A DNA stretch of 64,000 bases, taken from NCBI GenBank assembly GCA_964403585.1, contig CAYOFQ010000001.1, forward strand, positions 1,408,826 to 1,472,825, written 5' to 3'. Within the stretch, counting starts at the first letter, position 1. Each line of letters starts with the position of its first letter. Shown here one piece after another: positions 5,827-30,782 of this stretch. A program made the translations under genes and the position numbers. This DNA is from an uncultured Gammaproteobacteria bacterium. GTDB taxonomy: Bacteria > Patescibacteriota > Microgenomatia > JALYQM01. Under the pieces are notes generated by a model. That model saw only the letters and a program-made list of their open reading frames with translations, had not been told where the DNA came from and searched no databases.

Positions 5827-6096
5827 CTACTCGGTAGTGGTAGATAAATCAACAACTATCCTCCGCTGTCCCGGCATAAGCGGTGCTCCCCATCCGATAA
5901 ATTCAGTCTGAAATGCATTAACTATGAACATATTCATCCCTCGCGGACCAAAGTCAGACTGAAGGATACTCAACAAATAGTCCTGATTAACCGGACGTTG
6001 TCGCGACAACTCATCCTGAAGAGCTAAGCGCAGTTGGGCCTTAACAAGAGGATTCTCTACGGTAAAAGTAATCAAATCACCGACATATTCGTTCAT
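5827..6096 (-). CDS. small hypothetical protein inside the suf operon (89 aa)
   Basis: ORF between sufC and sufB, in the position where a sufD would be expected. No motif. Confidence 0.35.
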   Translation of the reverse strand: MNEYVGDLITFTVENPLVKAQLRLALQDELSRQRPVNQDYLLSILQSDFGPRGMNMFIVNAFQTEFIGWGAPLMPGQRRIVVDLSTTTE

Positions 6097-6107
6097 GAAC
6101 CCGTTCC

Positions 6108-6851
6108 TCAGAGAATTCCTTCATATCCCTTCTCCTCCACATACTCGCTCAACTCTTTGCCACCTTCTTTTGCAACTTTTCCATCAGCTACAATTGAAAC
6201 CACTTCAGGCTCCAGATACTTTAAAATTCGCATGTAATGCGTGATAACCAAAACTGACGACTCGGGATGTGCGTCAAGATACTCTCTAACCCGGTACGCT
6301 ACATGTTTTAACGCATCCACATCCAATCCTGAATCAACCTCATCCAAAACTATCAGTTTCGGCTGCAGTACCGCCATCTGTAATATCTCATTTCGCTTTT
6401 TTTCTCCTCCCGAAAATCCTTCATTAAGATTTCGTTTCTGCATCCCTTCCTTCATCCCCAGCTTCTTGACCTCTTCCTCTAACACCATCTTAAATTTGAG
6501 AACCGACAACGGCTTCTCATCTTTTGAACGCGCAACCTCGCGTTGCGCCATACGGAGGAACTGTTCTACAGGCACCCCCGCAACTTCCTGAGGATACTGA
6601 AAACTTAAAAACAATCCCTTCTTAGCTCGTTCATCAACACTCATCGACAATAAATCTTCACTCAAAAATTCAACTGCGCCACCGGTGACACGATAGCGGG
6701 GGTGGCCCGCTAAAGCATACGCCAAGGTGGATTTTCCAGAACCGTTTGGCCCCATAATGGCATGCACTTTGCCTGCCGAAACCTCAAGATTAAGGCCTTT
6801 TAAAATCTCTTTTTTCTCAACATCTACATGTAAATCGGTAATTTTAAGCAT
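6108..6851 (-). CDS. sufC: Fe-S cluster assembly ATPase SufC
   Basis: ABC ATPase: Walker A GPNGSGKST, signature FSGGEKKR, Walker B LIVLDEVDSGLD. Typical SufC length of 247 aa. Confidence 0.9.
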   Translation of the reverse strand: MLKITDLHVDVEKKEILKGLNLEVSAGKVHAIMGPNGSGKSTLAYALAGHPRYRVTGGAVEFLSEDLLSMSVDERAKKGLFLSFQYPQEVAGVPVEQFLRMAQREVARSKDEKPLSVLKFKMVLEEEVKKLGMKEGMQKRNLNEGFSGGEKKRNEILQMAVLQPKLIVLDEVDSGLDVDALKHVAYRVREYLDAHPESSVLVITHYMRILKYLEPEVVSIVADGKVAKEGGKELSEYVEEKGYEGIL

Positions 6852-6965
6852 ATCCTGGACATTATACAGAATAAAGAAATTTGAGGCAAATCAAAGGTCC
6901 GGATTATTCATGGGCCGCAGCCTGAACCGGCAACTGGAAACTGAACGTTGAACCTATCACAAGTA

Positions 6966-7000
6966 AAAAAGGGAGTCCGTGTTCTTATGAGAACGGACTC
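6966..7000 (-). terminator. intrinsic terminator (minus strand) ending a short transcription unit
   Basis: On the minus strand, the 12-bp stem gggagtccgttc...gaacggactccc followed by TTTTTT. Confidence 0.5.
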
Positions 7001-7032
7001 CCAAATATTCACCTATACGAGCAGGCGTTGTC

Positions 7033-7140
7033 TAGCGTTTGATTTTTCGAGTTGCATACCGAGGTGAACGATCCAGTACGGCTTCAACAACTGCTATTGC
7101 AACGGATAAACCTGCAAGAGAGATACCTAACGTTAACACT
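7033..7140 (-). CDS. small hydrophobic peptide (35 aa, MLTLGISLAGLSVAIAVVEAVLDRSPRYATRKIKR), GTG start
   Basis: Perfect SD GAAGGAGGTG 5 nt upstream of GTG. One predicted TM helix plus a basic tail. Sits between a near-consensus minus-strand promoter (TTGACT-17-TATATT at about 7216-7250) and the terminator at 6966-7000. Confidence 0.3.
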
Positions 7141-7215
7141 GGACCACCTCCTTCTTCGTCTTTCATAGACCCGGCGAAGAGTACTTCCCCGAACTATCAC
7201 GACTATAAACAATAT

Positions 7216-7250
7216 ACAGGGAATATAGCTGTTCTAATAGCACAAGTCAA
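7216..7250 (-). promoter_or_regulatory. sigma70-like promoter TTGACT-N17-TATATT driving the small-peptide transcript
   Basis: Read on the minus strand: ttgacttgtgctattagaacagctatatt. Confidence 0.4.
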
Positions 7251-7319
7251 GAGATAGAGAATTAAATATACTCGCCAGGTATTCCTCAGAAAGTTGAACA
7301 TATACTATATAATACCCGT

Positions 7320-8843
7320 ATGCTCAAGAAGATTGGTTCATTCATCTATCACCACTCTCCATACATTCTGGCTGGCATTATTACCTTACTGTATACAGCA
7401 TTAGCCCTTTTACGGCATTACCATTTCCGTACCTACGGATACGATTTAGGCATTTATGACCAAACGGTCTGGCTATACAGCCGATTCATCTATCCCTTTG
7501 TTACGGTGGAATACAAATTCGCCCTACTCAATCACTTCTCTCCCAGTCTGGCATTATTTGCTCCAATCTATTGGATCTGGAGCGACCCCAAAGCGCTCCT
7601 CATTCTGCAAGCCGTAATGATGGGAGCTTCAGCCATTCCCTTGAATAAAATTGGCAAAAAACTCGGTTTACCCGTCTATCTACGGGCAGTCCTGACAGTC
7701 TCATACCTGTTATTTTATGGATACCAGTATTCTATCAATTTCGACGTTCACTCAATTGTCTACGGAACTGTACTCATACCTTGGTTTATTCTCGCCCTCG
7801 AAAACAAACAATACCGGCGTGCAGCCATATTCATGGCGATAATTTTAGGGATGAAAGAAAGTTTTCCGGTCATGACCTTCTCCATCGGCGTCATATATTT
7901 TTTGCGAGGGCAAAAAAAGGTTGGTGCAATTGTCGCAGCAGCATCTTTAGCCTACATGTTTACCGTACTCAAAATTCTTTTCCCCATTATGGAAAACTTA
8001 ACCAATGAGTATTATCGCTTTAGGTCCTCTAATCCGACAACAATCCAGGATATCGTACTTAACCTATTTAATACTCCTGAAAAACGGGAAGTATGGTCAC
8101 TCAGTTCCTTGTGGTTTGCCCTCATTCCGCTATTTTCGCCCGTCACCCTCATTGCCGCAATTACCGATGTTTCGTTTTATTTTATTCTTGGAAACAATCA
8201 CACTGAGACAGGAAATATTTACTTACAGTATCGTTCATCACTTGCTCCCTTACTCGCCTGGGCAACAATCTACGGAGCATACAATCTCCATAACCTGAAT
8301 AAATATACCGTCCCGCGTACAAATAAAAAGCTTCCTTCAATACCTTACCTTTTTATTGCCATCCTCTTAGCTTGCTCCTGGGCATATTTTCAACACACCT
8401 ATCATCTTCCGCTCAATACCTTGAGTAAGAATGTTTGGTACACCTGGCCGCAATGGATCGAAGACAACCAGAAGTTGCTTAAGCAAGTTCCCCCGAACGT
8501 ACCGCTTGCAGTTCAGGACAACCTTATCCCGCATATTCAGCAAAGGAAAGAAATGCATATCCTGTGGGCATATAAATTAAATGACGGATACCGTATCTTT
8601 AATCCCGCCAATTCCCCTTGCGGTCAGGAAAAATGCTTCTGGCTTAGTTACCACAAGAATGTTAAGTACCTAGTAACCGACACCCACGAGGGGCAAGGCC
8701 CGAGAACGCTCTTAATGGAAAATGAGAAAAAACTTGATGAAGGATTGGCTAACATGGAAAAAGCCGGATTTATCAGTTTAGTAGCCCGTGAAGGCAAAGC
8801 GGCCCTCTGGAAAGTTAATAAATACCCTGAGGATACACTATAA
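7320..8843 (+). CDS. polytopic membrane protein, DUF2079-like
   Basis: 507 aa, multiple TM helices. N-terminal YGYDLGIYDQ motif typical of the DUF2079 membrane-protein family. Confidence 0.5.
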   Translation: MLKKIGSFIYHHSPYILAGIITLLYTALALLRHYHFRTYGYDLGIYDQTVWLYSRFIYPFVTVEYKFALLNHFSPSLALFAPIYWIWSDPKALLILQAVMMGASAIPLNKIGKKLGLPVYLRAVLTVSYLLFYGYQYSINFDVHSIVYGTVLIPWFILALENKQYRRAAIFMAIILGMKESFPVMTFSIGVIYFLRGQKKVGAIVAAASLAYMFTVLKILFPIMENLTNEYYRFRSSNPTTIQDIVLNLFNTPEKREVWSLSSLWFALIPLFSPVTLIAAITDVSFYFILGNNHTETGNIYLQYRSSLAPLLAWATIYGAYNLHNLNKYTVPRTNKKLPSIPYLFIAILLACSWAYFQHTYHLPLNTLSKNVWYTWPQWIEDNQKLLKQVPPNVPLAVQDNLIPHIQQRKEMHILWAYKLNDGYRIFNPANSPCGQEKCFWLSYHKNVKYLVTDTHEGQGPRTLLMENEKKLDEGLANMEKAGFISLVAREGKAALWKVNKYPEDTL

Positions 8844-17680: not shown

Positions 17681-18109
17681 CTATTCGTGGCGACTGGTCA
17701 ATATAACCAAAACCAGTAACTGCAGCAGGATTGCCAAAGCCCATAACCGTTCCCCCGTTGACCAGTGAGGGAGAACCTGGTCCTTATAGGCCACCACAAT
17801 CGTCATAATAGTTACCCAAACCAGGTTTTGCAGGAGAGCTGAGCGTACATTCGCCTGAACCATCGCTCCGACATATAAGTGATAGAGAATAATCCCGGCA
17901 AAAAAGAAACCTGCCGAAAGGAACAATTTTGACCAGTGAATTGTCGGAAACCAGCTATGCGGATTTCGGGTCCATCCTAAACTCGCCGAAGAAACAGCAC
18001 TTCCGTCGGCAAAACCGGTAGCAGAAGCAAATACTAATCCTGCAACTATATAAAAAACTACGAGCATCGTACTTACTCTCGCTTTCTTTCTTTTTGGCAT
18101 ATGCCGCAT
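17681..18109 (-). CDS. small integral membrane protein (142 aa)
   Basis: Predicted TM helices, no motif. Confidence 0.35.
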   Translation of the reverse strand: MRHMPKRKKARVSTMLVVFYIVAGLVFASATGFADGSAVSSASLGWTRNPHSWFPTIHWSKLFLSAGFFFAGIILYHLYVGAMVQANVRSALLQNLVWVTIMTIVVAYKDQVLPHWSTGERLWALAILLQLLVLVILTSRHE

Positions 18110-18136
18110 ATATCAATTAGTGTAGAGTAAGACCTT

Positions 18137-19756
18137 CTAACTTTCAACTAAATGTCCGGGTATTATTCCTTCATCAAGATATTTCTGTCGCTCTTCGCCG
18201 GTTAATTCCTTAAATCCGACAATTTTACCTCGACAAACCACACTGTCACACATACACACAATCCCTCGGCTTATCTCTGATTCCATAGTTGCGTAGTCAA
18301 CTGCGATCTCATCTCCGGCAGCAATATCCCGCCGGGCTAAAACCCGAATCATCTTGGATTCATAGTCAGGTTCAACATAAACATTTCCATCACAGGAATG
18401 ATTCAAATAATGACCCCACAGAAAATTTCCCACTTCATCAATTGGCTCGATATGCTCATTTTGGGTTAATTGAAGTGAATACATTGTACGTATTGGGGAA
18501 AGCTGGCCCTCTACCGTAAAAAGCAAATCTCCTTTTTTAAAACTTTTCTTCGCATATATCCCAAGTTCGGATTCCAAAGTAGAGCTTGCTCGAACAACCA
18601 CATTTTCGTTCTCTGGATAGTCGATACTTTCTCTATCGTTAAGATAATAATAATGCGGCTCAGGTAAGGCATGATAGTGCGTAAAGAACATTGACGTATA
18701 TGCACCAACGTCATGAAGTATCACTCGATCTCCCATCTGTAAATTTTCAGGCAACATTACTTCAGTTGCCAATGTATCATCAGGATCAAGCGTATTCCCT
18801 GAAACGTTATACTTTACCGGTGGTCCATCTTTCAGAGATTCAATCTTATATGTCAGCTTCCCGCGGCTCTCCAAAATTTCAATCAAACCATGATATACAC
18901 CGAAATTCACAAATAACCAGCGGTTCTTATGCCGCTGAATAGAACGAATTACGCTCAGTATCATACAAGCGGCATCCGCAACCAGTACCCGTCCCGGTTC
19001 ACACCAGAACTCAATATCTTTAGGAAAACTCTTTAAATGCTGATGAATCACGCCTGAAAACTCTTCTAAAGTTGGACAGTCGTTAAACTGATACCGTGCG
19101 GGAAATCCACTGCCAATGTTTAAAATCCGCAACGTCGGCATCGCTTTGTAATATCGCTTAAATAACTCTTTACAATACAACAAAACATCCTTCCAAACGC
19201 CAGTCTCCATATTCTGTGAGCCGACATGGAAACAAATACCGGAAATTGCGATCCCTTGTTCAATTGCGTAATGAAAAATATCTTCTACTTCTTTAGGATT
19301 AGCGCCAAATTTGTCACTGTACTCATAAAACTTGCCCTCGCTTGGCGGCAATATTCGCATCATGAACATACTACCCGGCGCATTTTCATGCAAATGTCCC
19401 AACTCCTCTACCGAATCAAAGGTAAATTTTCGCACCCCGCGATCAAATGCTAAGGCCACGATATGAGCAAACTTAATCGGATGAGTGAACAGGATATTCT
19501 CAGAAGGAACACCTAAGCCAATCAGCTTGTCTATTTCACCTAAACTGGCAGCATCATACGAAAGGCCTCTCCGGTTTATTTCAAGCAATAATTTATCTAA
19601 AGGATTAGTCTTTGTAGAATAGAATATGCGGAATTCTGGAAACAATGAACTAAAAACATCAATATTAGATCTAAACTGATTTAAATCATAAACAAAAGCC
19701 GGAGTTTGACACTCCTGTGATAATAATTCAAAGGAGGTGTTTTGATCGGATGACAT
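18137..19756 (-). CDS. fusion protein: ornithine/DAP/arginine-decarboxylase-fold (fold III) PLP enzyme + C-terminal SET-domain methyltransferase
   Basis: N-terminal about 390 aa carries FYSTKTN (PLP Lys), NIGSGFP, CFHVGSQ, EPGR and DVGAYT motifs of the ODC/DapDC family. C-terminal about 140 aa carries the SET hallmarks NHSCDGN, GDEIAVDY and a post-SET CMCDSVVC. Confidence 0.75.
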   Translation of the reverse strand: MSSDQNTSFELLSQECQTPAFVYDLNQFRSNIDVFSSLFPEFRIFYSTKTNPLDKLLLEINRRGLSYDAASLGEIDKLIGLGVPSENILFTHPIKFAHIVALAFDRGVRKFTFDSVEELGHLHENAPGSMFMMRILPPSEGKFYEYSDKFGANPKEVEDIFHYAIEQGIAISGICFHVGSQNMETGVWKDVLLYCKELFKRYYKAMPTLRILNIGSGFPARYQFNDCPTLEEFSGVIHQHLKSFPKDIEFWCEPGRVLVADAACMILSVIRSIQRHKNRWLFVNFGVYHGLIEILESRGKLTYKIESLKDGPPVKYNVSGNTLDPDDTLATEVMLPENLQMGDRVILHDVGAYTSMFFTHYHALPEPHYYYLNDRESIDYPENENVVVRASSTLESELGIYAKKSFKKGDLLFTVEGQLSPIRTMYSLQLTQNEHIEPIDEVGNFLWGHYLNHSCDGNVYVEPDYESKMIRVLARRDIAAGDEIAVDYATMESEISRGIVCMCDSVVCRGKIVGFKELTGEERQKYLDEGIIPGHLVES

Positions 19757-20947: not shown

Positions 20948-22759
20948 ATGGCCAATATAGTTAACTTATCATTTTACGCTGACCTCCAGCAGTCGATGTT
21001 GGATATCGACGACACCGAAGTGCTGGTTATAACTGCATTGAATCAAGTCTCTACCGAACTGTCTGTGATTAACCTCACTGCCAAATACCTGAGCGCGCTC
21101 TTTCTTGATGAAGAAAAGCAAATCGCCCTGATATATACAAAAAATGAGCACACCAGTGAGTATGAACAGGCAGATACCAAAACTAATGCGGAAGCCCGTG
21201 AGCTGTATGAAAAATTAAATAATATACTTAATTCAGAGAACACTGTTAGATCGGCCATCCAAAATAAGAAAATAGCCATTATACAGGACAAGGATACAAT
21301 TATCCCTTCCAATGTACCAAATCGAGATGAAACTCAAGCAATACTGGTATCACCCATATATATTGCCAAAGGATTTCGGGGGGTAATTATTTACGGGTTA
21401 GATAAACCGCCAATAGAACTGGACCAGAACCAGCTCCAGGTGGTAAAAATTATGTCCAACCTTATTGGTCAATCCTTCAGATTACAGGACTCCCAAACAT
21501 CCATTACCACTATTACCCAGGAACTATACAAAACCAATGCTCAGCTACACCAGCTGGATAAAATGAAAGATCAGCTCATCGCAGTAACCTCACACGAACT
21601 ACGTACCCCGGCAACTGTTGTCCAAAATTACTTATGGATGGTTTTATCCAAACCAGCAGCAGGAACAGTGCTTTCGGACAAAGATAACGAACGTTTGAAA
21701 AACTCCTTTACCGGCATCCAAAACCTTATCCACCTTATCAACGACATTCTCGATGTATCCAAGATCGAAAGTGGGAGCATCGAACTAAACGTGCAGCCGG
21801 TTAAGTACTCTGATGTGGTTTTTGAAATAGTACGGGATCTGATGCCAAAAGCTCAAGCAAAAAAAATCGCGCTTACCGTTACCAAAGAGGAAAAGCTTCC
21901 GGATGTAATTCAAACAGATAGCGTCAGATTAAAGGAAATTCTCGTTAACCTGATCAGTAATGGAGTCAAATTTACCGAAAAAGGCTCCGTGAACATTCAT
22001 ATATCGCAAAAAGACAACCAGCTTCAGTTTGCTATCAAAGATACCGGCCGCGGAATTGCCGCAGACTTCCTTCCCAATCTATTTAAAAAATTCCACCGCG
22101 AGGACACCGCCCTAACTGCCTCGAATCCCGAAACCGGTGGTACCGGACTCGGACTATACATCACTAAATCCATGACCGAAATTATGCAGGGGAAAATTTC
22201 AGTTGAATCGGTACACAACCAGGGATCAACCTTCACCATAACTCTTCCGGTCAATCCCAGTCTTGTTCAACCACAAAAGCCTGCCTCTGTTGCCACTCCT
22301 TTTATTCACGAGGGAGTCATTACCCGTTCAGATTATCTTCGATCGGTCGGACAATCCACTACCCCTCCTGCAAAATCTAAACCTCAGGATACCCGCAAAA
22401 AAATTCTCCTTATCGAAGATGACCAGGATATGCAGGATCTGTATGGAGATTATCTTTCAGATATCTATAACATCACCATTGCCCACAACGGCCAAGAGGG
22501 CCTCGAAAAAATGGAAAACGAGCAATATGATCTGGTTTTGCTGGACATTATGATGCCCAAAATGGACGGTGTAGAATTCCTGGAAAAGAAAAAAGGACAC
22601 GAGAAAAATTTTGGTGTACCGGTAGTGCTCCTCACTAACCTCGCAGCCGAAGAAGTCCTCAACAAATGCATACAATTGGGCGCCAAGTCGCTTATTATGA
22701 AGTCGGACATCACCCCGGATCAAATCCCACCGGTTATTAATCAGGTCTTACAATCTTAA
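20948..22759 (+). CDS. hybrid sensor histidine kinase (N-terminal sensory domain, HisKA, HATPase_c, C-terminal receiver)
   Basis: HisKA SHELRTP. HATPase N/G boxes (LISNGVKFT, DTGRGIA, GGTGLGLYI). C-terminal REC with ILLIEDD...DLVLLDIMMPKMDG. Confidence 0.85.
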   Translation: MANIVNLSFYADLQQSMLDIDDTEVLVITALNQVSTELSVINLTAKYLSALFLDEEKQIALIYTKNEHTSEYEQADTKTNAEARELYEKLNNILNSENTVRSAIQNKKIAIIQDKDTIIPSNVPNRDETQAILVSPIYIAKGFRGVIIYGLDKPPIELDQNQLQVVKIMSNLIGQSFRLQDSQTSITTITQELYKTNAQLHQLDKMKDQLIAVTSHELRTPATVVQNYLWMVLSKPAAGTVLSDKDNERLKNSFTGIQNLIHLINDILDVSKIESGSIELNVQPVKYSDVVFEIVRDLMPKAQAKKIALTVTKEEKLPDVIQTDSVRLKEILVNLISNGVKFTEKGSVNIHISQKDNQLQFAIKDTGRGIAADFLPNLFKKFHREDTALTASNPETGGTGLGLYITKSMTEIMQGKISVESVHNQGSTFTITLPVNPSLVQPQKPASVATPFIHEGVITRSDYLRSVGQSTTPPAKSKPQDTRKKILLIEDDQDMQDLYGDYLSDIYNITIAHNGQEGLEKMENEQYDLVLLDIMMPKMDGVEFLEKKKGHEKNFGVPVVLLTNLAAEEVLNKCIQLGAKSLIMKSDITPDQIPPVINQVLQS

Positions 22760-25536
22760 CTCTCTTGTGCCTTTTTAAGCGTAAACGTAAACGTACTTCC
22801 TTTACCCGGAGTTGAAGTAACTGAAACCGTTCCCCCCATAGCTTCAATATATTTTTTACAAATATACAAACCTAACCCGGTACCGGTTGTCTGCGCAACA
22901 GTCGCATACTGGTTATCCAAACGGCCAAATTTGGTAAACAACTTTGGCATATCTTCCGGGTTAATACCTTTACCGGTATCGGTTACCGACACAGACACAA
23001 AATCACCCTTATCTAACACCGTTGTTGTAATCGACCCCTGATCGGTAAATTTAAGCGAATTACCTATAAGATTAATAAGCACTTCGTGCACCTTATCCCC
23101 ATCGGCAAAGACCAGTACTTTATCCTCACTCTCAATACCTAATTTAATATTCTTCTCATCAGCCTTAATCTGCAATTCTTCGTTAACCGCTTTGATCAAA
23201 TCAACCAGCTCAAAATTCTTGTTCTCAATTTTAGTCCTTCCACCCTCAATCCGGGAAATAGTTAACATATCATTAACGAGATTAATTAAGCGCGATGTCG
23301 ACTGCGCCACCCGCTGCAGGTAATACCGCTGCTTCTCCTGCAAATCACCACCCTTACCGTTCAAAAGCATCCAAACATATCCATTAATAGCCGTCATCGG
23401 CGTTCTGAGCTCATGCGAAGCCACCGAAACGAACTCATCCTTCATCTTATCCAGCTCAATAAGCTTCTGGTTACTAACCTCAAGGGCCTCATTCGCCGTC
23501 TTCGCTTCTTCGTACAAATACGAGTTCTCTAATGCAATCCCTACCTCATCCATGAAGGCATCAAGCACATTCATTTCAGACGCCGGTACATCGTGCGGAG
23601 CTATATGCATAGCTAATGCCAAGGTCCCAAGAGGCTTATCCTTTGAAAACAAAGGATATACAATCATTCCCTTCATTCCGATTACTTGCTGTATTGTGTT
23701 TGATATTGGCCGTGGTAATCCAGGCGCCAATGCATCAGCAAGCGACGTCGTTGTAATTTTGCTACGCAAATCTAAAGCCTGCACCGCCATACTTCGCTTT
23801 TCATCAAGAGGAGTAGTAATATTTTCAAACGGACCTGGTAAGACAGAAAGTGCCCTTTTTATCGTAGGAGTCTGCGAAACTGCAGTTGGCACCAATACAC
23901 TTCTTTTAGAGTCTACTAAACTAATAATTGCGCCGTCATATCCTAACTCCCAAGAAATGGTATCTACTACTTTCTGACACATTTCCTTTAAGTCCAAAGT
24001 GGTGGTAATAATATTCTCCATGTGACGCAGAATTTCTAAGTTTTTATTTTTCTGCTTAAGCTCAAGGGTCGCTCTATCCACTTCAATTTTCAATCTCTCA
24101 CCAAAATCTCTTGAGTGCATAAAAATAAGAATATTTTCGATTCCAATTGCAGCTTGCAATGCAAATGTCTCAAGAACAGAAACATCCTCTCTAGTAAAAG
24201 CATCACCTGATTTTTTATCACCGATAATTATCGCTCCAATAACTTCATTCTTAATTTTTAAAGGTAGAACAATACTGACCTCATTTTCTAACATCCATTC
24301 AATTACTTGATTCTTATTATGGTCTTCTTTATCAATAACATCATCTTGTAAATCCTCTAACAGAACAGAACCACTACTGGTTTGTAATAAACTAGTTAGT
24401 ACTGACAACATAACCAGTTGTTTATTAGATTCTCCATAGTTATAAACTACAAATTCTTTACTCTGCGGAAATATTGTAGACAGATTATTTCTTCCTTGTA
24501 ATTTAACAGCAAAAGCCATATGCGAGATATGTAAGTTAGAATTAATAATTGTGTATACATTTTTTAATACCTCTTCAAAACCCAAAGTTGAATTTAAAGC
24601 GAGACTAAGCTCTCTTAACAAGTCAGACGGATTATAAACACTACTAAATAAATATTTATCAGTTGCTTTTCTTATATAATAAGCTAAAGAGTCATAAACT
24701 AAAGATAATAAGAAAGCTGCGAGAACAAAAATGTAAAGTAGAGTATAATCAAAATTATCACCTTTAAAACTGAAATATACAAAACCAGCAATCGAAAAAA
24801 TACCTATGATTGAAATTGTAATCAGAAGCTGAGCCAAGCCTCGCCTCAAAGCCAATCTGATATCTAGTAATCTATGTTTAATGATTGCGTATGATATTAA
24901 GGCAACAAAAATTAAAGAAAATGACGGACCTAAAGCTACAAAACCAGAAAACTGGAACAATACCACAGCGACAAAATTAGTCACAACTTGCAAAGCGAAA
25001 GTAAGTATTACTCCTATATATAAATATTTAAATTGAAGCTTAATTATTCCCTTTGCTTTTTTATATCTATGAATAGTTACCCAAATACCGTAAATCAACG
25101 AACCAAAAAATAAAACGACATAAAACAGTATTCCAAAATTTGGTTTAGGGCTAATGGTCGGAACTAATGTAACTCCTGAAAAGACTAATGGAGTCATCGC
25201 CATTAAAGCCACTGCAATAGTTGAAAAAATTAGCAAAACTACACTTCTTTTCCTAACAGAAATTTCGCTTCTTGGGAATGCTAAAAGCAACAATGCTACT
25301 GTTGGACCTAGTGGCGCTGTAGCAACCATAACCATTCTAATCCAAAATAAAGTTATTTCAGCAGAATTTGAGTTTAGTGAAAAATAATTAAAAATCGACC
25401 AAGAAGCAAAAATAATAGTTAGAATAGCTATTAATTTATGTGTAGTACTTCTAGAATTTTTTGAAAAAACTAATAAACCTAAAGATAAATTTATTAATGC
25501 AGTAAAAATGACTATTGCTAAAGTCAGAAAACTCAT
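22756..25536 (-). CDS. multi-TM sensor histidine kinase with GAF domain(s)
   Basis: 926 aa. N-terminal about 300 aa with 7+ TM helices, GAF-like middle, HisKA SHELRTPMTAI, HATPase (LIGNSLKFT, DTGKGI, GTGLGLYI). Stop codon overlaps the stop of the convergent HK (TTAA at 22756-22759). Confidence 0.85.
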   Translation of the reverse strand: MSFLTLAIVIFTALINLSLGLLVFSKNSRSTTHKLIAILTIIFASWSIFNYFSLNSNSAEITLFWIRMVMVATAPLGPTVALLLLAFPRSEISVRKRSVVLLIFSTIAVALMAMTPLVFSGVTLVPTISPKPNFGILFYVVLFFGSLIYGIWVTIHRYKKAKGIIKLQFKYLYIGVILTFALQVVTNFVAVVLFQFSGFVALGPSFSLIFVALISYAIIKHRLLDIRLALRRGLAQLLITISIIGIFSIAGFVYFSFKGDNFDYTLLYIFVLAAFLLSLVYDSLAYYIRKATDKYLFSSVYNPSDLLRELSLALNSTLGFEEVLKNVYTIINSNLHISHMAFAVKLQGRNNLSTIFPQSKEFVVYNYGESNKQLVMLSVLTSLLQTSSGSVLLEDLQDDVIDKEDHNKNQVIEWMLENEVSIVLPLKIKNEVIGAIIIGDKKSGDAFTREDVSVLETFALQAAIGIENILIFMHSRDFGERLKIEVDRATLELKQKNKNLEILRHMENIITTTLDLKEMCQKVVDTISWELGYDGAIISLVDSKRSVLVPTAVSQTPTIKRALSVLPGPFENITTPLDEKRSMAVQALDLRSKITTTSLADALAPGLPRPISNTIQQVIGMKGMIVYPLFSKDKPLGTLALAMHIAPHDVPASEMNVLDAFMDEVGIALENSYLYEEAKTANEALEVSNQKLIELDKMKDEFVSVASHELRTPMTAINGYVWMLLNGKGGDLQEKQRYYLQRVAQSTSRLINLVNDMLTISRIEGGRTKIENKNFELVDLIKAVNEELQIKADEKNIKLGIESEDKVLVFADGDKVHEVLINLIGNSLKFTDQGSITTTVLDKGDFVSVSVTDTGKGINPEDMPKLFTKFGRLDNQYATVAQTTGTGLGLYICKKYIEAMGGTVSVTSTPGKGSTFTFTLKKAQES

Positions 25537-25585
25537 ACAAATAGAGTATCTCTTGCCAATTAAATTTGCAATGGAATCAGAAAAA

Positions 25586-26788
25586 TTATTTTCTTACAGA
25601 AGTTCTCAGATCTATCATTACTTCGTCTTTTATATCAGAGCCTTCAAGATATTCCATAATAGCCGCACCCACAATTGCGCTAGATAACCGAGCTGCAATA
25701 CCTGATTGTGGCCAAAAGTTATGCCCATCAGCTACCACAGCCCCAACCGCAGATTGAAAATCATGAGTCATAAAGTGACCTATCATCTTACCAGCAATAA
25801 TTGTTTTTATATTCTGCGGCAACTCTTTTCCTTGATAATACATTTCCTCAAGCATTACCATATCATCAGGAGTTAATCGCCCACCAAATAATGTACTTCC
25901 TGGAAAATGGATCTGGTTGGCACCTGCCAATGAGATGTCTGTACCCATAAAGACTGGTGAATTTGATTTTTCACGAATAATTCCTTTTAGATAGAGTTGA
26001 TCAATTTCCTCTAGTACAATTCCTTCTAAACCTACCCACTCTAAGACTTTATGTAGTGAAACAGTATCTGACGCATCCTCTAATCCAAGATTTTGAGAAT
26101 AAGCTTTATAGTTTCCATAAGGAAAAAAATCCAATGCTCTTTGCAAAAAATGAGTCGCATGATTCAATCCATAGGAATGTACGCCACTAGAGGGGAGTCG
26201 CTGTGTATCGTGAGGGGCTACAGTTCCCCCATCTATAACAGTAAGATTTTCAGCACCTAACCACATAAGCACTTCAGCAATTGAGAAACCGACACCCGCA
26301 CCAATAATCGCAATTTTAGTCGTCCTTAAACGTTCATAAGCATCTTTAGTAAAGATCCCTTTATTGCGAGAAAAAACAATTTCCCGCATTTGATCGTAAG
26401 GAAGAATTGAAACAAACCGTCCTTCATTCAACCAAGAAAACTCAGCAATAACACTAGAGTCCAAAAAACTTGAATCTGAAATTATTCTTCTCCGTATTTC
26501 ATCATCATTGTCTTTTCTCAATTTTGCATGATCTATAAGTTGTAATGGATATTCATCTACAAGGAACCTTAATTCTAAAGCACGAGCTAACATTTGAGGA
26601 ACATCGTTACCAATTCGCCATAACAAGAATCGCTGATTATCATGTCCTTGACCTAAAGCATGAGTACGCAATGAAGAAATGAACGCAGCCTTGCCTAGCT
26701 CATCTTCTAATTGGTATAAATTAACATGAGGAGATGACTCTGTGCTTACCTTTAACTCAGAATTAGTAATAAATAAATTCTCATGCAT
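25586..26788 (-). CDS. E1/ThiF/MoeB-like adenylyltransferase-fold protein with about 170-aa N-terminal extension
   Basis: KIAIIGAGVGFSIAEVLMWLGAENLTVIDGGTVAPHDTQR matches the E1-like Rossmann/nucleotide-binding signature (GxGxxG...LxLxDxDxVexsNLnRQ). No C-terminal CxxC pairs. The start is 1 nt after the upstream gene's stop. Confidence 0.6.
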   Translation of the reverse strand: MHENLFITNSELKVSTESSPHVNLYQLEDELGKAAFISSLRTHALGQGHDNQRFLLWRIGNDVPQMLARALELRFLVDEYPLQLIDHAKLRKDNDDEIRRRIISDSSFLDSSVIAEFSWLNEGRFVSILPYDQMREIVFSRNKGIFTKDAYERLRTTKIAIIGAGVGFSIAEVLMWLGAENLTVIDGGTVAPHDTQRLPSSGVHSYGLNHATHFLQRALDFFPYGNYKAYSQNLGLEDASDTVSLHKVLEWVGLEGIVLEEIDQLYLKGIIREKSNSPVFMGTDISLAGANQIHFPGSTLFGGRLTPDDMVMLEEMYYQGKELPQNIKTIIAGKMIGHFMTHDFQSAVGAVVADGHNFWPQSGIAARLSSAIVGAAIMEYLEGSDIKDEVMIDLRTSVRK

Positions 26789-26789
26789 A

Positions 26790-27704
26790 TTAAGCTGTTA
26801 CAAACTCATATAAACGAGGCGTATCTGTTCTGCCATATAAGTGAGGCAACCAATACTGCGAGAACTTCTTATAATAAGCATTAGCCATTACTGCTTCCTG
26901 AAGAATTTGCATCTCTTCTACTGACCCTACTCCTGCATATAATAAATTTAATGCATCAACATCTGTGGTCAAATCTACCCCTAACTCATAACCTGGAATT
27001 TGTTTGAGAGACATCGGTATCTCAACAACTTCAATGCCTCCTGCCTTTACATTTCTAACAACTCTTCTTGGCATTACAGCCGCAAACGACTCTACAGGCG
27101 GAAATTTATTCTTACTTATCTCAAAACCTAAACGTAGTAAGCTACCTGTAAGTAAACCAGGGATACCTTGCAACTTACGTATATCTTCTACTAAACAATA
27201 TCTACCTACTGTAGCAACAGTAGAGTAAGGTTTTCCTACTTCTTCATTAGGCCATTTAGCTGACACTAAATCCATTTCTGCAATAGGTGACATGCCTGGA
27301 ATTCCACTATCTGTACCAAACACAAATCTCATAGTTGAAGTAACAATACGTCCCTCTTGGTTTGGTAGGTTCGTTACTGCAGCTAATACTACAGATCTAC
27401 CCTCTACTTCATTTCCGTCCTTACAAAGCAACTGATAAACCTCAGCTTGTGAAAGACGATGCTCTGGGTTAGCTAAAGGAGCATAATTAGCAGCCACAGT
27501 CTGTAGTGTAGCCTCAAGCAATTCGGGATCAGTCGTAACGTCAAGATACTCAGTATTTTTGCCTACATACTCAGAAGTCAAGTTAGGTGCAATATTGTAT
27601 CTTATTTCAAGACTTTTTGTACGTCTAACGCTGGGAATTCCTGATTCTAGTAAGGGATTCCCTTCTTTAATAACAGTAGTAGCTCTCGTTTCTAAAACTG
27701 GCAT
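26790..27704 (-). CDS. uncharacterised 304-aa protein, translationally coupled partner of the E1-like gene
   Basis: No clear family. Weak nitroreductase/SagB-like hints only (SVRRTKS near the N-terminus, NLPNQ). AT-rich codon usage distinct from neighbours. Confidence 0.45.
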   Translation of the reverse strand: MPVLETRATTVIKEGNPLLESGIPSVRRTKSLEIRYNIAPNLTSEYVGKNTEYLDVTTDPELLEATLQTVAANYAPLANPEHRLSQAEVYQLLCKDGNEVEGRSVVLAAVTNLPNQEGRIVTSTMRFVFGTDSGIPGMSPIAEMDLVSAKWPNEEVGKPYSTVATVGRYCLVEDIRKLQGIPGLLTGSLLRLGFEISKNKFPPVESFAAVMPRRVVRNVKAGGIEVVEIPMSLKQIPGYELGVDLTTDVDALNLLYAGVGSVEEMQILQEAVMANAYYKKFSQYWLPHLYGRTDTPRLYEFVTA

Positions 27705-27708
27705 AAGA

Positions 27709-27745
27709 CAAAAAAAGCGCTACTCCACTAACTAGGAGTAGCGCT
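27709..27745 (-). terminator. intrinsic terminator/attenuator in the 5' leader of the E1-like operon
   Basis: Minus strand: agcgctactcc-tagttagt-ggagtagcgct followed by TTTTTTT, ending 5 nt before the ATG of the 304-aa gene. Confidence 0.5.
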
Positions 27746-27787
27746 TTAAACACCAAAATTCATAAGAATAATACTATAAGTTGTCAT
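27746..27787 (-). CDS. 13-codon leader ORF (MTTYSIILMNFGV) between promoter and attenuator
   Basis: ATG 8 nt after AGG. Stop TAA abuts the terminator hairpin. Could be a leader peptide or a short precursor peptide. No conservation data. Confidence 0.2.
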   Translation of the reverse strand: MTTYSIILMNFGV

Positions 27788-27796
27788 AAAAAAACC

Positions 27797-27851
27797 TAAA
27801 TGTGACATTTGGAGCGCAATTATAGCACATATATACCGCAATGTCAACACT
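27797..27851 (-). promoter_or_regulatory. consensus sigma70 promoter (TTGACA-N17-TATAAT) with 13-bp perfect palindromic operator AAATGTGACATTT at the transcription start
   Basis: Minus strand reads ttgacattgcggtatatatgtgctataattgcgctccaaatgtcacattt. Confidence 0.45.
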
Positions 27852-27887
27852 ATAAGACATATTAATTTTTCTTTCTATATTTAAAAA

Positions 27888-27921
27888 AATGCCTACTCTA
27901 TAGAGTAGGCATAAAATATCT
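27888..27921 (-). terminator. intrinsic terminator after the XRE-like gene / small TM ORF
   Basis: Minus strand: tgcctactcta-tagagtaggca followed by TTTTTTT. Confidence 0.45.
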
Positions 27922-28164
27922 AGCGATGGCTATAACCATCCCGCTTACATCACTAAGCCAAATAAGTTCAGTCAGATACACCATAAAATTTCTGTATAAT
28001 TCTAATATTATAAGATTCCTTAAGGCACAACACAAGTACGATAATCCCACTGTTATAAAAATAACATATATATTATAATAAATTATAACATTAATAACTG
28101 GTGTACTGCGATCATAATTGCAATCTATCTCTCCCTTTTTAAACAAATTCTTGTCCCAGGTCAT
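27898..28164 (-). CDS. small membrane protein (88 aa), overlaps the 3' end of the XRE-like gene
   Basis: Two predicted TM helices. Overlap of 26 nt with the upstream ORF. Very AT-rich. Confidence 0.3.
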   Translation of the reverse strand: MTWDKNLFKKGEIDCNYDRSTPVINVIIYYNIYVIFITVGLSYLCCALRNLIILELYRNFMVYLTELIWLSDVSGMVIAIARYFMPTL

Positions 28165-29206
28165 AATCCGTTAATATATATAATCCTGGATTTGCCTCCC
28201 AAATAGAAGTTAAATTAAGATAATCCCTATAAGCGACCGGATAAAGATATTGAGAATTTGGCATTGTATAGTATGGGATAGCATCCGGAACCTTCTTAAC
28301 ATTAATCTCGGCTTCTGCCAGCATGTCTAAAACAAATGAAAAAACTATAGCATAAATAATTCTTACTCTTCTTCTTCTAGCAATATTACATATAAAATTA
28401 AAACCTTTTCTACAAATAATTGAATTATATTGCCAAGCCCAATTAGGGATAACTAGTCTATCCAGCTCACCTATTTCGCTTATCGACAATTGTAAATGTT
28501 CGTGAGGCCAACCATATGGAAGATCCATAAGCTCCATAATACTTAGTGGGCTTCGAGTCTCTGAATTGCCTTGCAAAAAACGAATTGTTGTAGAAAGATA
28601 TTCTCTTCCTGTATTCGGGTCAGTTGTGACACCAATAATTTCATCAGAAAAGGAATTATTAGAATAGGGATCCTTTAATAATTCCTCAAAGTAGTGTTCA
28701 GGAGGTTTTTGCATTGAAGTGCTTGTTGCATAATAGCCAGCCTGGGCACAGTTAGCTTGAAAGGACCAAAAGTTTTTAATCTTTTCGTCGCTAATCTCAC
28801 GAAGGGTATAAAATTGAATATTTTCGGAAGTTATTAATGTATTATTAAATATTGAACTTGGCTCAATTAGTTGTGAGTATTTAGAATAAGGCGACAACAT
28901 TCTATTCGTATATCCCATCTCAAGTTTCTCTTCATCATTCAGCCCTCTTAAACCAAGTGAAAGCAGTATTTCATCAGCATTGTCTAACTCTGTTATAGCA
29001 CCATTATTAATGAATATCTTTATCAAAGCTAAAATTATTCTACGATCTTTTGGAACACGTTCTCCATTCTTCCATTTAGAAAATATACTATCCTCATAGA
29101 CAAAACCCTCTTCAGCTAAAGCCGACCCAAATTTCCCGTAAGTATCTAATCCTGCTTTAAGGCGATAATAATTAAATAACTCTCCAAAATTTTTATTCGT
29201 GTTCAT
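28139..29206 (-). CDS. XRE-family helix-turn-helix domain protein with about 290-aa uncharacterised C-terminal domain
   Basis: N-terminal FGELFNYYRLKAGL...FGSAL...SKWKNGERVP fits the HTH_XRE pattern. The remainder is unknown. Confidence 0.55.
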   Translation of the reverse strand: MNTNKNFGELFNYYRLKAGLDTYGKFGSALAEEGFVYEDSIFSKWKNGERVPKDRRIILALIKIFINNGAITELDNADEILLSLGLRGLNDEEKLEMGYTNRMLSPYSKYSQLIEPSSIFNNTLITSENIQFYTLREISDEKIKNFWSFQANCAQAGYYATSTSMQKPPEHYFEELLKDPYSNNSFSDEIIGVTTDPNTGREYLSTTIRFLQGNSETRSPLSIMELMDLPYGWPHEHLQLSISEIGELDRLVIPNWAWQYNSIICRKGFNFICNIARRRRVRIIYAIVFSFVLDMLAEAEINVKKVPDAIPYYTMPNSQYLYPVAYRDYLNLTSIWEANPGLYILTDYDLGQEFV

Positions 29207-29367
29207 AAGTGTTATTAAAAAGATATTACTTGAATATTATATTAAGGTCAATAATTCAGCAAAAACCCTCCTCCGTGACTCACCTCACAGACAACTTTGT
29301 CCAAAAATTAGACAATTTTGTCATTCACCTCCCCATTATATGTCTATAAAATAAGGATAAAGCAGAT

Positions 29368-29670
29368 ATGCAAGAATATATCCAGAACCAAATTCAAAAA
29401 TACCAACACACACAACCCGATGGGAAGCAGGAATGTTTTTTGCATATCTGCCGAGAAACACTGGAGTACTACTACAAAGGAATGGTTTCCGAAAAAGACA
29501 TTGTTACCGTAATGGAAGCTTTTCTGCAATTTAAAGAACTTCTTTCGGATAAATATACCCGCCACATTATTGGCACTGCCGGAATGCTCGAGATGCCGGA
29601 AGAATTCGCTATAAAATCTCACCAAGAAATTATTTCTGAGTTGGCTCAAATTACTGCAATAGCGCACTAA
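29368..29670 (+). CDS. hypothetical protein (100 aa)
   Basis: ORF with a plausible start. No motif. Confidence 0.35.
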   Translation: MQEYIQNQIQKYQHTQPDGKQECFLHICRETLEYYYKGMVSEKDIVTVMEAFLQFKELLSDKYTRHIIGTAGMLEMPEEFAIKSHQEIISELAQITAIAH

Positions 29671-29954: not shown

Positions 29955-30365
29955 ATGACAATTAGCTCTGCGATTCTGATCGCCAGCACACTACTGACGA
30001 TCATTCAGGGAATGTTTGGTTTTGCTACACACTACACAATGCCGACCACGAGCTCACTGCAAAACACCGTCCACGCGTCCGCCATTCAGTCTGTCCCGAC
30101 TACCAACACAGTCACTAACGCATCGCCTGACAGGGAATACCCAATCACCACCACTCGCCCCTGCGAAATCCGCAAGGTCAGTGCTAGCGTCGATGGTGAC
30201 GGCTGGGTCGGAGAGCTTACGCTCGGCGGGCTGATTTACGCGGTATATGGGTATTCAACCTCGCCTTTCGAAGGCTCGTGCGAACTAGAGTCAATCTACT
30301 ACGGATACCGCACCAGCTACACGATCGTCGAATCCAAAGCACGATTCCCCATGTACTTCTTCTGA
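29955..30365 (+). CDS. small secreted Cys-containing protein (136 aa), paralog of 30444-30782
   Basis: N-terminal hydrophobic signal. Shared C...DGxW...G...G...C...Y pattern with the next ORF. GC-richer than surroundings. Confidence 0.4.
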   Translation: MTISSAILIASTLLTIIQGMFGFATHYTMPTTSSLQNTVHASAIQSVPTTNTVTNASPDREYPITTTRPCEIRKVSASVDGDGWVGELTLGGLIYAVYGYSTSPFEGSCELESIYYGYRTSYTIVESKARFPMYFF

Positions 30366-30388
30366 CCCTGGCAAGAATCAAGTTTAGC

Positions 30389-30431
30389 CCGACACGCGGC
30401 GGAAGCTGCGCATACGCTCGTCGCGTGTCGG
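30389..30431. repeat. GC-rich palindromic repeat unit, copy 1 (CCGACACGCGGCGGAAGC...CGTCGCGTGTCGG)
   Basis: Imperfect about 43-nt inverted repeat immediately 3' of gene 29955-30365. The same arms recur at 30817-30863. Confidence 0.5.
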
Positions 30432-30443
30432 ATAGGAGAAATC

Positions 30444-30782
30444 ATGCTCAACGCAATATCCGCATTGGTGCTGGTTCTAAACCTACTTGCGAGCCTTTAC
30501 GGCAACATTACTCCTAACCAGCAACGCCAAGACATTGTGATAACCACTCCTGCCAACTCACCCGAAAAGATCGTCGATTTCTCGGCACCATGCACGGTAT
30601 CAGGTTCAAAAGAAAACAACGACGGAACGTGGACGGCAAGCATTGATATGGGGTACGGTCCAGATGTAGTCGAGGGATGGGGTTTCGGTCCATTTGATGG
30701 CAATGCCATCTGCCACACCTTTCCCACAAAATACATCTTGGAGGGTAATACCATCTTCTATTACGGCTCACCTCTGCGTTAA
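30444..30782 (+). CDS. small secreted Cys-containing protein (112 aa), paralog of 29955-30365
   Basis: Signal peptide MLNAISALVLVLNLLASLYG. Conserved Cys/Gly/Trp pattern. Confidence 0.4.
   Translation: MLNAISALVLVLNLLASLYGNITPNQQRQDIVITTPANSPEKIVDFSAPCTVSGSKENNDGTWTASIDMGYGPDVVEGWGFGPFDGNAICHTFPTKYILEGNTIFYYGSPLR

Follow-up and report, generated by a model that had tools for sequence, protein, structure and literature searches.

Acyl-oxazolones were discovered only between 2020 and 2025, in bacteria as different as Pseudoalteromonas and Mycobacterium tuberculosis (bioRxiv 10.1101/2020.06.11.147165; PMC10404671; PMC12856293). The pathways for these compounds are defined by a FeeM-like N-acyltransferase, a ThiF-like ATP-dependent cyclase and a nitroreductase-type flavin oxidase, where the acyltransferase N-acylates Tyr, Phe or Trp from acyl-CoA, the ThiF-like enzyme forms the oxazolone ring after adenylating the carboxylate, and the oxidase adds the exocyclic double bond (bioRxiv 10.1101/2020.06.11.147165; PMC10404671; PMC12856293). 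The locus described here lies in a stretch of 64,000 nucleotides (nt) from an uncultured bacterium (contig CAYOFQ010000001.1, positions 1,408,826 to 1,472,825), referred to as a whole as the window or the 64-kb window. Within it, adjacent genes for a protein of 304 amino acids (aa) and for an E1/ThiF-like enzyme of 400 aa, followed by the gene for a seven-transmembrane (7TM) histidine kinase, probably constitute an oxazolone-type small-molecule pathway with a dedicated sensor.

The closest described systems are OxzA/OxzB of Pseudoalteromonas rubra (bioRxiv 10.1101/2020.06.11.147165; reviewed in PMC12596934), TyzA/B/C of the M. tuberculosis tyrazolone cluster (PMC10404671) and TrzA/TrzS (Rv1356c/Rv1355c), which form the tryptazolone pathway of mycobacteria and Rhodococcus (PMC12856293); this trio of genes is also found in organisms that produce N-acyl dehydrotyrosines (PMC12479983). 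TrzS cyclises first, and saturated oxazolone builds up when the oxidase is disabled or oxygen is limiting (PMC12856293). Since cyclisation can therefore precede desaturation, the saturated oxazolone is a real enzymatic product. Its ring is opened by acids and by alcohols (PMC12856293). Amongst the acyltransferases, identity is low even between OxzA and TyzA, and the structural neighbours reported for TyzA are FeeM and acyl-homoserine lactone (AHL) synthase (PMC10404671). Oxazolones have been proposed as possible signals, with their biological role explicitly left undetermined (bioRxiv 10.1101/2020.06.11.147165; PMC10404671).

What, then, does the window pair share with these systems? Its adjacent N-acyltransferase has a FeeM/AHL-synthase-like GNAT fold and its ThiF-like cyclase is of the TyzB/OxzB/TrzS clade, both of which are defining components of oxazolone pathways. 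The two enzymes are very likely an N-acyl amino acid synthase (NAS) and a ThiF-type cyclase. An earlier reading of the locus, made from the letters alone and referred to below as the original prediction, had held that the module could not be assigned to any described system; this view is not supported, as the pair matches the N-acyltransferase and ThiF-like cyclase logic of OxzAB, TyzABC and TrzAS.

Organisation of the locus

The genes of the proposed system, as annotated here, are the following.

26790..27704, minus strand: NAS-like gene, 304 aa ('domain X', predicted GNAT-fold acyltransferase)
25586..26788, minus strand: predicted E1/ThiF-like adenylating cyclase, 400 aa, cysteine-free, TrzS/OxzB/TyzB clade
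22756..25536, minus strand: sensor histidine kinase, 926 aa (HisKA_7TM (PF16927), two GAF, HisKA and HATPase_c domains; Pfam)
20948..22759, plus strand: hybrid histidine kinase with receiver, 603 aa (Pfam HisKA, HATPase_c and Response_reg)

The three minus-strand open reading frames (ORFs) of the original prediction, encoding 400, 304 and 355 aa, are all present where it had placed them (the 355-aa protein is considered below), and the 400-aa gene does start 1 nt past the stop of the 304-aa gene. The gene for the 926-aa kinase, transcribed in the same direction, starts 49 nt after the end of the E1 gene and is convergent with that of the 603-aa hybrid kinase, the two ends overlapping. The AT-richness that had been remarked upon is also real, with guanine plus cytosine (GC) contents of 0.377, 0.392 and 0.339 for the 400-, 304- and 355-aa genes against a mean of 0.422 (standard deviation 0.028) for the genes of the window. 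This low-GC block takes in the 926-aa kinase gene too (GC 0.36), extending over ~22756-29500. Recent horizontal acquisition of the block was considered and ruled out: block and flanks are syntenic in a related genome, L001 (loci carry L numbers and proteins P numbers throughout), and no recent insertion has therefore taken place. Rfam and tRNA scans of the 64-kb window gave no matches.

The E1/ThiF-like enzyme

The assignment of the 400-aa protein to the E1/ThiF enzymes is correct, with Pfam ThiF matching residues 141-244 (E=1.5e-10). The N-terminal extension that had been proposed is present, and the part that precedes the Pfam ThiF match amounts to ~140 aa and not to ~170; in alignment the residues from ~110 onward are common to TrzS-type enzymes. 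The reported lack of CxxC pairs turns out to be a lack of any cysteine, so no thioester, persulfide or Zn site is possible. A housekeeping role in thiamine or molybdenum cofactor synthesis, already thought unlikely, remains so given the zero cysteines, the weak scores of the NCBIfam ThiF and MoeB models (E of at least 1e-3) and the lack of a ThiS or MoaD partner nearby. There is likewise no E2, JAB, ubiquitin-like (Ubl) or small beta-grasp gene in the vicinity.

The family relationship of the enzyme comes from several comparisons. Its best NCBIfam match is 'Rv1355c family protein' (1.2e-10), a family that returns 1.3e-33 and 3e-28 for two fusion proteins described below and 4e-22 for the E1 of L018, with the next-best NCBIfam family for the fusion proteins and the L018 enzyme at 1e-19 or worse. 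In BLASTP against annotated Rv1355c-family proteins from plasmids of actinobacteria, the window E1 scores 5.9e-9 and the fusion P0016 2e-25, the identity of the window E1 to an Rv1355c-family protein being only ~27% over 173 residues. Within a ten-sequence alignment R141, G163, V166, G167, R197, P223, D263, K268, D284, Q361 and G383 are invariant, and W119, D186, N209, E260 and P360 nearly so. The motifs of the clade span residues 119-383 (YPW, the SR/DR Arg finger, GxGxxG, R197, EExD263xLxxK268, D284 and WPQ); besides the ATP/Mg residues they include two that are specific to it, YPW before the Rossmann fold and WPQ near the C-terminus. By alignment D263 would be the counterpart of Asp217 in TrzS, mutation of which abolished cyclisation (PMC12856293). 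On these comparisons the window E1 is placed as a member of the ThiF-like cyclase clade that holds TrzS/Rv1355c, OxzB and TyzB.

Amongst other E1 enzymes, AclA (9egb) is the top structural match and TcdA/CsdL is detectable as a relative; the relationship to MccB and PaaA is more distant than that to the small-molecule cyclases. PADLOC E1-E2 models match weakly, each within 40-85 residues around the nucleotide-binding loop (best E=7.8e-5), and Pfam, NCBIfam and PDB searches give no signal for the recognition element (RRE) of ribosomally synthesised and post-translationally modified peptide (RiPP) pathways. With weak PADLOC matches only, no E2, JAB or Ubl gene, no E1 cysteine and no detected RRE, the RiPP, ubiquitin-like and anti-phage categories originally suggested for the architecture are not supported.

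A plasmid of Streptomyces sp. NBC_01426 (L102, 4842-6616) encodes a further member of this clade, a ThiF-family protein of 390 aa that stands alone and matches the window E1 at E=1.5e-11, where its gene overlaps by 4 nt that of a 201-aa GNAT unrelated to the window acyltransferase family. With no annotated oxidase adjoining, this locus is another desaturase-less pair of ThiF and GNAT.

The NAS-like acyltransferase

The sequence of the 304-aa protein finds no match in Pfam, NCBIfam, PADLOC or PDB sequence searches. Word-indexed protein searches returned 3 relatives each for this protein and the E1, and 6 with a profile, whereas HMMER, run in full over 1.84 billion representatives from a profile of three sequences of the 304-aa family, produced 43 proteins. 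An AlphaFold2 model of the 304-aa protein, from a 34-sequence alignment, has a mean predicted local distance difference test (pLDDT) score of 89.2, and comparison of this model with known structures gives a GNAT fold, for which FeeM and AHL synthase are the nearest structures. Within the 34 family members there are weak Pfam matches to Acetyltransf_5 (8 members), Autoind_synth (3) and FeeM (2), and some members weakly match NCBIfam TIGR03694, all of these falling below the family thresholds. The LuxI-family AHL synthase model PF00765 does not match the window protein, and reaches 3 of the 34 family members at E of at least 0.04. As modelled, the likeness to LuxI-type AHL synthases is thus one of predicted fold only. 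The hints of a nitroreductase or SagB-like protein that had once been read into this sequence have no equivalent in these searches, and that identity was rejected in favour of the GNAT fold.

One branch of the acyltransferase family, of planctomycete type, has a FAD_binding_4 oxidase as partner, either as a separate protein or in a fusion, and has neither E1 nor kinase (P0033, P0040; L099 7001-9321 and L100 7001-8167). Such pairing may represent an alternative route to N-acyl dehydro-amino acids.

Conservation of the pair and of the kinase link

The neighbourhood sample is small, comprising six lineages. A scan of genome contigs with a profile from the E1 alignment recovered no genome beyond L001, the sister genome known before, and a degenerate DNA pattern for WPH...GE(L/F)GRF gave 83 loci in metagenomes, ~5 of them true. 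Within this sample the pair is conserved: the two genes are neighbours in every relative whose flanks could be read, and two lineages have them fused. This adjacency and fusion uphold the suggestion that a non-housekeeping E1 is functionally coupled to the 304-aa protein. For instance, the NAS-like gene directly precedes the E1-like gene in L001; the two are separated by 12 nt or less, or overlap, in the window, L001, L002/3, L008, L096-98 and L090, and lie 45 nt apart in L018/56. The E1 of L002/L003 is only 29% identical, and the 282-aa protein upstream of it matches the hidden Markov model (HMM) of the NAS family at 2e-12 and 1e-8. NAS and E1 are joined in a single polypeptide, with the E1 N-terminal region included, in P0016 (692 aa) and P0019 (641 aa), the latter annotated as Candidatus Levybacteria, of the Candidate Phyla Radiation (CPR).

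The association extends to the kinase. In 6/6 divergent lineages with enough sequence (L001, L003, L007, L008, L018 and L093-95) a HisKA_7TM histidine kinase is the next same-strand gene downstream of the pair or fusion, and in L018 a convergently oriented oxidase gene lies between E1 and kinase. The 603-aa hybrid kinase is kept in L001 with 75% identity, so that a hybrid kinase-receiver is found in the window and L001; receiver-only proteins adjoin the module in L007 and L093. Between window and L001 the NAS-like protein is 72% identical, the E1 65%, the 7TM region of the kinase 72% and the 355-aa protein 34%, the more slowly changing parts being the kinase core (91%) and prolyl-tRNA synthetase (89%). 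Several unrelated flanking genes are as divergent or more so, among them those of a CBM protein (49%) and a 268-aa protein (38%). This unevenness is compatible with co-diversifying specificities of signal and receptor, and no more than suggestive of them. No relatives were found in the viral contigs or plasmids searched.

Other genes recur around the module. Type IV pilus genes flank it in L093, L096 and L018, and the genes concerned (T2SSE/T2SSF ATPase and platform, PilM, N_methyl pilins) lie at L093 2461-7462 and 12232-12759, L096 1-7797, L018 3599-4060 and L100 2521-3048; none was found in the window among the 40 ORFs scanned of its 55 of at least 150 aa. Control of pili is a possible output of the kinase. 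In three lineages an amino-acid decarboxylase is encoded only a few genes away from the module, and its type differs from one lineage to the next. That of the window is an unusual Orn/Arg decarboxylase to which a SET methyltransferase domain is fused (18137-19756, minus strand); L001 has a pyruvoyl-dependent Arg decarboxylase adjoining a PrmA-like methyltransferase and the 355-aa orthologue (17915-19274), and L008 a group II pyridoxal phosphate (PLP) decarboxylase divergent from the NAS-like gene (5853-7409). These enzymes may supply an amine nucleophile, or their presence may be coincidence.

Promoter and leader of the operon

The region upstream of the NAS-like gene was compared between the window (27705-27925, minus strand), L001 (9775-10003) and L008 (7770-8003). 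From its upstream end towards the NAS start codon it contains the following features, all on the minus strand.

27889..27912, minus strand: terminator-like hairpin closing the upstream transcript and overlapping the end of an 88-aa ORF; also in L001 (9788-9815)
27847..27856, minus strand: CTTATAGTRT copy 1, which abuts and overlaps the -35 hexamer
27819..27847, minus strand: sigma-70-type promoter TTGACA-17-TATAAT (with TG), 12/12 matches, kept in L001 and L008
~27795-27813, minus strand: 5' hairpin in the consensus fold, which would sequester the Shine-Dalgarno sequence of the short ORF
27746..27787, minus strand: short leader ORF of 13 codons (MTTYSIILMNFGV), read from the sequence, its stop codon touching the terminator stem
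27771..27780, minus strand: CTTATAGTRT copy 2, inside the leader, at codons 3-5 of the short ORF
27714..27747, minus strand: 13-bp terminator-like hairpin with T-run, putative attenuator, ending ~10 nt before the NAS start codon

The motif CTTATAGTRT occurs only twice in 64 kb, against 0.17 occurrences expected, and its two copies are found with an identical spacing of 76 nt in the window, in L001 and in the distant L008. A hairpin with T-run occupies the matching leader position in L001 and L008, and the leader ORF has counterparts in both (MKTYSIFLIYFLF in L001 and MKTYSMWFSLILEKRGGIRA in L008), these ORFs having 13-20 codons and beginning M-T/K-T-Y-S. The overlapping CTTATAGTRT motif would also explain the conservation of the first codons of the short ORF. 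Taken together, the leader looks like a duplicated operator coupled to a translation-coupled attenuator.

Proposed pathway and alternative explanations

How might such a set of genes operate? From its fold and family, the NAS-like protein would acylate an amino acid at its alpha-amino group, with acyl-CoA or acyl-ACP (acyl carrier protein) as donor, and so form an N-acyl amino acid. The E1, from its clade and its conserved ATP/Mg residues, would then adenylate the carboxylate of this N-acyl amino acid, after which attack of the amide oxygen on the acyl-adenylate would displace AMP and yield a saturated 2-alkyl-oxazol-5(4H)-one (azlactone); alternatively, the activated acyl group could be captured by another nucleophile. 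As there is no nitroreductase-type desaturase, the product would be a saturated, electrophilic oxazolone. That the product is an oxazolone at all is held tentatively, the balance lying just on the side of doubt. With conserved gene order as the only guide, this hydrolytically labile, lipid-like product, or its N-acyl amino acid precursor, would be sensed in the membrane by the HisKA_7TM-GAF kinase, which would signal via the adjacent hybrid kinase/receiver. Expression would be governed by the consensus promoter with its two CTTATAGTRT copies and by the leader with its short ORF and terminator. The constant presence downstream of a 7TM sensor kinase suggests that the lipid-like product is a signal, and a role for the kinase as receptor of the product is conceivable though doubtful. 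In its fullest form the proposal would be of an autoinducer-like synthase-receptor system, in which a saturated acyl-oxazolone or a derivative is detected by the 7TM-GAF kinase of the same operon, with autoregulation through CTTATAGTRT and the attenuator, and in which specificity might diversify; this extension is rather unlikely.

A number of observations weigh against the oxazolone pathway and its sensor. The desaturase of all characterised oxazolone systems is missing from 5/6 of the related lineages, only L018/L056 having one; phmmer finds no match to the L018 oxidase anywhere in the 64-kb window, and there is no nitroreductase Pfam match among 40 of the 55 window ORFs of at least 150 aa. 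On a Rhodococcus plasmid, the 252-aa gene divergent from an Rv1355c-family gene, putatively TrzA-like, shows no similarity to the profile of the 304-aa family. The window E1 scores 40 bits against an NCBIfam cutoff of 476 for Rv1355c, a model that also covers the oxidase domain, and the Lys of the GxNKA motif is replaced by His in the window E1 and by Gln in several relatives. The structural model of the E1, from 5 sequences, is poor (pLDDT 59), with low confidence in the N-terminal part. Finally, gene order alone fits both a kinase that senses the product and co-expression for another reason. A point in favour is the nitroreductase of L018, which is of the Acg/FDO type, matches the C-terminal half of the Rv1355c model and ties the clade to bona fide oxazolone clusters.

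The alternative that accepts the same enzymology is that the product is a structural or protective membrane lipid, or a reactive acyl donor, and that the kinase is an envelope or other sensor which shares the operon or controls it but does not bind the product. Oxazolones are mostly cell-associated in M. tuberculosis and Rhodococcus, and a link exists between the tyz genes and resistance to oxidative stress (PMC10404671; PMC12856293); N-acyl amino acids may form part of membranes (PMC10404671), and the two cytoplasmic GAF domains of the kinase could bind an unrelated ligand. Yet the occurrence of the kinase downstream in 6/6 divergent lineages, fusions included, is tighter than expected of a general envelope sensor, and its 7TM region has diverged between window and L001 about as far as the enzymes (72% against 72% and 65%), with a catalytic core at 91%. 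A membrane-lipid role is regarded as unlikely. It is improbable to a greater degree that the E1-like protein is a degenerate, non-catalytic scaffold or ligand-binding partner, such that only an N-acyl amino acid is made. The His and Gln in place of the GxNKA Lys speak for this, as does the appearance of SAE1 (SUMO-activating enzyme subunit 1) among the best single-sequence PDB matches of the E1; SAE1 is a non-catalytic E1 subunit. The argument for catalysis is the conservation of key positions: R141 (the Arg finger), GxGxxG, D186, R197, D263 (the Mg/ATP Asp), K268 and D284 show little or no variation within the clade, to which the biochemically active TrzS family belongs (PMC12856293).

The two remaining explanations would take the E1 away from small molecules. 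In a RiPP-like or lipopeptide system the E1 would adenylate a short ribosomal peptide, at its C-terminus or on a side chain, for instance the product of the 13-aa upstream ORF, with the N-terminal extension as a clamp and the GNAT acylating the peptide. In ThiF enzymes of the MccB and PaaA types the N-terminal domain does bind peptide (PMC12596934), the window E1 has ~110 unexplained residues at its start, and three loci share a short ORF starting M-(T/K)-T-Y-S ahead of the NAS gene. Against this, the conserved part of the short ORF coincides with the 10-nt motif that is repeated in non-coding DNA at the -35 box at the fixed 76-nt spacing, the C-termini (V, F, A) and lengths of the peptides vary, the stop codon abuts the terminator in the manner of an attenuator, no such ORF is present upstream in L002/3, L093, L096 or L018, and the nearest relatives of the E1 are small-molecule cyclases, with MccB and PaaA more distant; a peptide substrate is regarded as highly improbable. 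The weak PADLOC 'E1-E2' matches, and those to NCBIfam ThiF, MoeB and cap2_3, are what could be said for a ubiquitin-like conjugation or anti-phage module (CBASS Cap2, Bil, 6A-MBL) or a housekeeping ThiF/MoeB, and they cover ~40-85 residues around the nucleotide-binding loop. These roles were rejected and are effectively refuted: the E1 is free of cysteine, genes for E2, JAB, Ubl, ThiS or MoaD are missing from its surroundings, its partner is a GNAT to which it is joined in the fusion proteins, and, as regards defence, no relatives were found in the viral contigs and plasmids searched.

Neighbouring features

Two further features of the low-GC block lie beyond the operon promoter.

28139..29206, minus strand: 355-aa protein with a conserved N-terminal domain of ~100 aa and a second NAS-like GNAT domain
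29290-29301 and 29311-29322, minus strand: the 12-nt palindrome GACAAARTTGTC in two exact copies 21 nt apart, which precede the promoter-like site of the 355-aa gene

Residues ~142-346 of the 355-aa protein (nt 28169-28783) are a paralogue of the 304-aa protein (HMM of the 304-aa, or X, family E=2e-25; BLASTP 5e-5), and from the match to the family profile the 355-aa protein therefore contains a second copy of the domain. The pairwise alignment suggests that the invariant residues are kept in it. An orthologue that is 34% identical occurs at L001:19403-20449. The XRE helix-turn-helix (HTH) domain once ascribed to this protein is not detected by Pfam, by PDB profile search or by a home-made HTH profile, and a weak PHROGs 'transcriptional regulator' match (E=0.022) is confined to the L001 orthologue. 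The 355-aa protein is a candidate for a ligand-binding or second-synthase component. The palindrome GACAAARTTGTC has 5 matches in the window with at most 1 mismatch, against 0.82 expected, and both exact copies are those at 29290..29322; they appear operator-like, and none is found upstream of the L001 orthologue of the 355-aa gene.

The small transmembrane ORF (88 aa, 27898-28164) that had been listed as overlapping this gene was rejected. It has no protein-level match in related loci and ends inside the conserved terminator hairpin, and is therefore probably not a gene. A patch of ~50 nt in the same region (~27996-28045, minus strand) is conserved with L001 9644-9693 and carries a promoter-like TTGTG(C/T)-17-TA(T/C)AAT, with the conserved terminator hairpin ~95 nt beyond it. 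Patch and terminator could be a small RNA gene of ~115 nt just upstream of the operon promoter. On the other side of the 355-aa gene, between it and the gene for a DUF4153 membrane protein, are two small plus-strand ORFs of 136 aa (29955-30365) and 112 aa (30444-30782), which lie in a local GC-rich patch (GC 0.54 at 30000-30499). The stretch with these two ORFs, together with the 355-aa gene, is missing at the matching position in L001.

Significance and comparison with known systems

The annotation of two genes as 'hypothetical' or 'ThiF family' is hereby corrected, and a desaturase-less subclade of ThiF cyclases is defined, for which a saturated, reactive azlactone would be new as an end product. 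This kinase-wired and sometimes fused branch of the enzyme pair offers the testable hypothesis that oxazolones, or the N-acyl amino acids that precede them, act as signals and have a receptor of their own, which if true would be the first assigned biological role for oxazolone natural products. Should the host be of the CPR/Patescibacteria type, as one fused relative is annotated, the module would be a candidate, of a kind seldom met, for communication by small molecules in bacteria that live attached to other cells.

The systems with which the locus can be compared differ from it in distinct ways. With TrzA/TrzS it shares an N-acyl amino acid synthase and a ThiF-like ATP-dependent cyclase, Rv1355c being the best-scoring curated family for the window E1 and its relatives and the motifs, including the aligned catalytic Asp, being common along the ThiF-like domain. 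The window E1 differs from TrzS in its extra N-terminal region of ~110 aa and in the His for the GxNKA Lys; a histidine kinase link is not mentioned in the TrzAS paper (no search aimed at it was made), and none is present at the one annotated Rv1355c locus inspected. With OxzA/OxzB it shares a logic of two genes, in which a ThiF-type cyclase follows an N-acyltransferase and a small molecule is the substrate; the authors of that work speculated that labile oxazolones may be signals (bioRxiv 10.1101/2020.06.11.147165). OxzB is a ThiF-nitroreductase di-domain protein of Proteobacteria, unlike the ThiF-like enzyme here, which stands alone or, in relatives, is fused to the acyltransferase, and no receptor or kinase partner is known for OxzAB. 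In TyzABC the three functions reside on separate proteins, and L018 has the same set of NAS-like protein, ThiF-like protein and Acg/FDO-type nitroreductase; FeeM and AHL synthase are the nearest structures of TyzA as they are of the 304-aa protein. The window, in contrast, lacks a TyzC-type oxidase, TyzB (318 aa) lacks the long N-terminal region, and the Tyz neighbours are cysteine-biosynthesis and MmpL genes rather than a kinase.

More distant comparisons are with the FeeM/LuxI-type synthases and with TcdA/CsdL, the cyclic t6A synthase. In the former case ring closure would here be driven by ATP through the E1, with no lactonisation dependent on S-adenosylmethionine (SAM) implied, and the candidate receptor is a 7TM histidine kinase and not the LuxR-type regulator of LuxI systems. 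TcdA/CsdL is also E1-like and also carries out an ATP-driven cyclodehydration of an N-acylated amino-acid moiety to an oxazolone-type ring (PMC12596934), but it acts on tRNA, belongs to another clade and has neither an acyltransferase nor a kinase partner. The searchable literature gave no link of such pairs to HisKA_7TM kinases or to CPR bacteria. As far as that literature shows, two features are undescribed: the lack of a desaturase and the invariant association with a 7TM histidine kinase. In other respects the window pair appears to work as an oxazolone-synthetase pathway does and, by its E1, is to be counted among them, differing in one defining feature, the oxidase.

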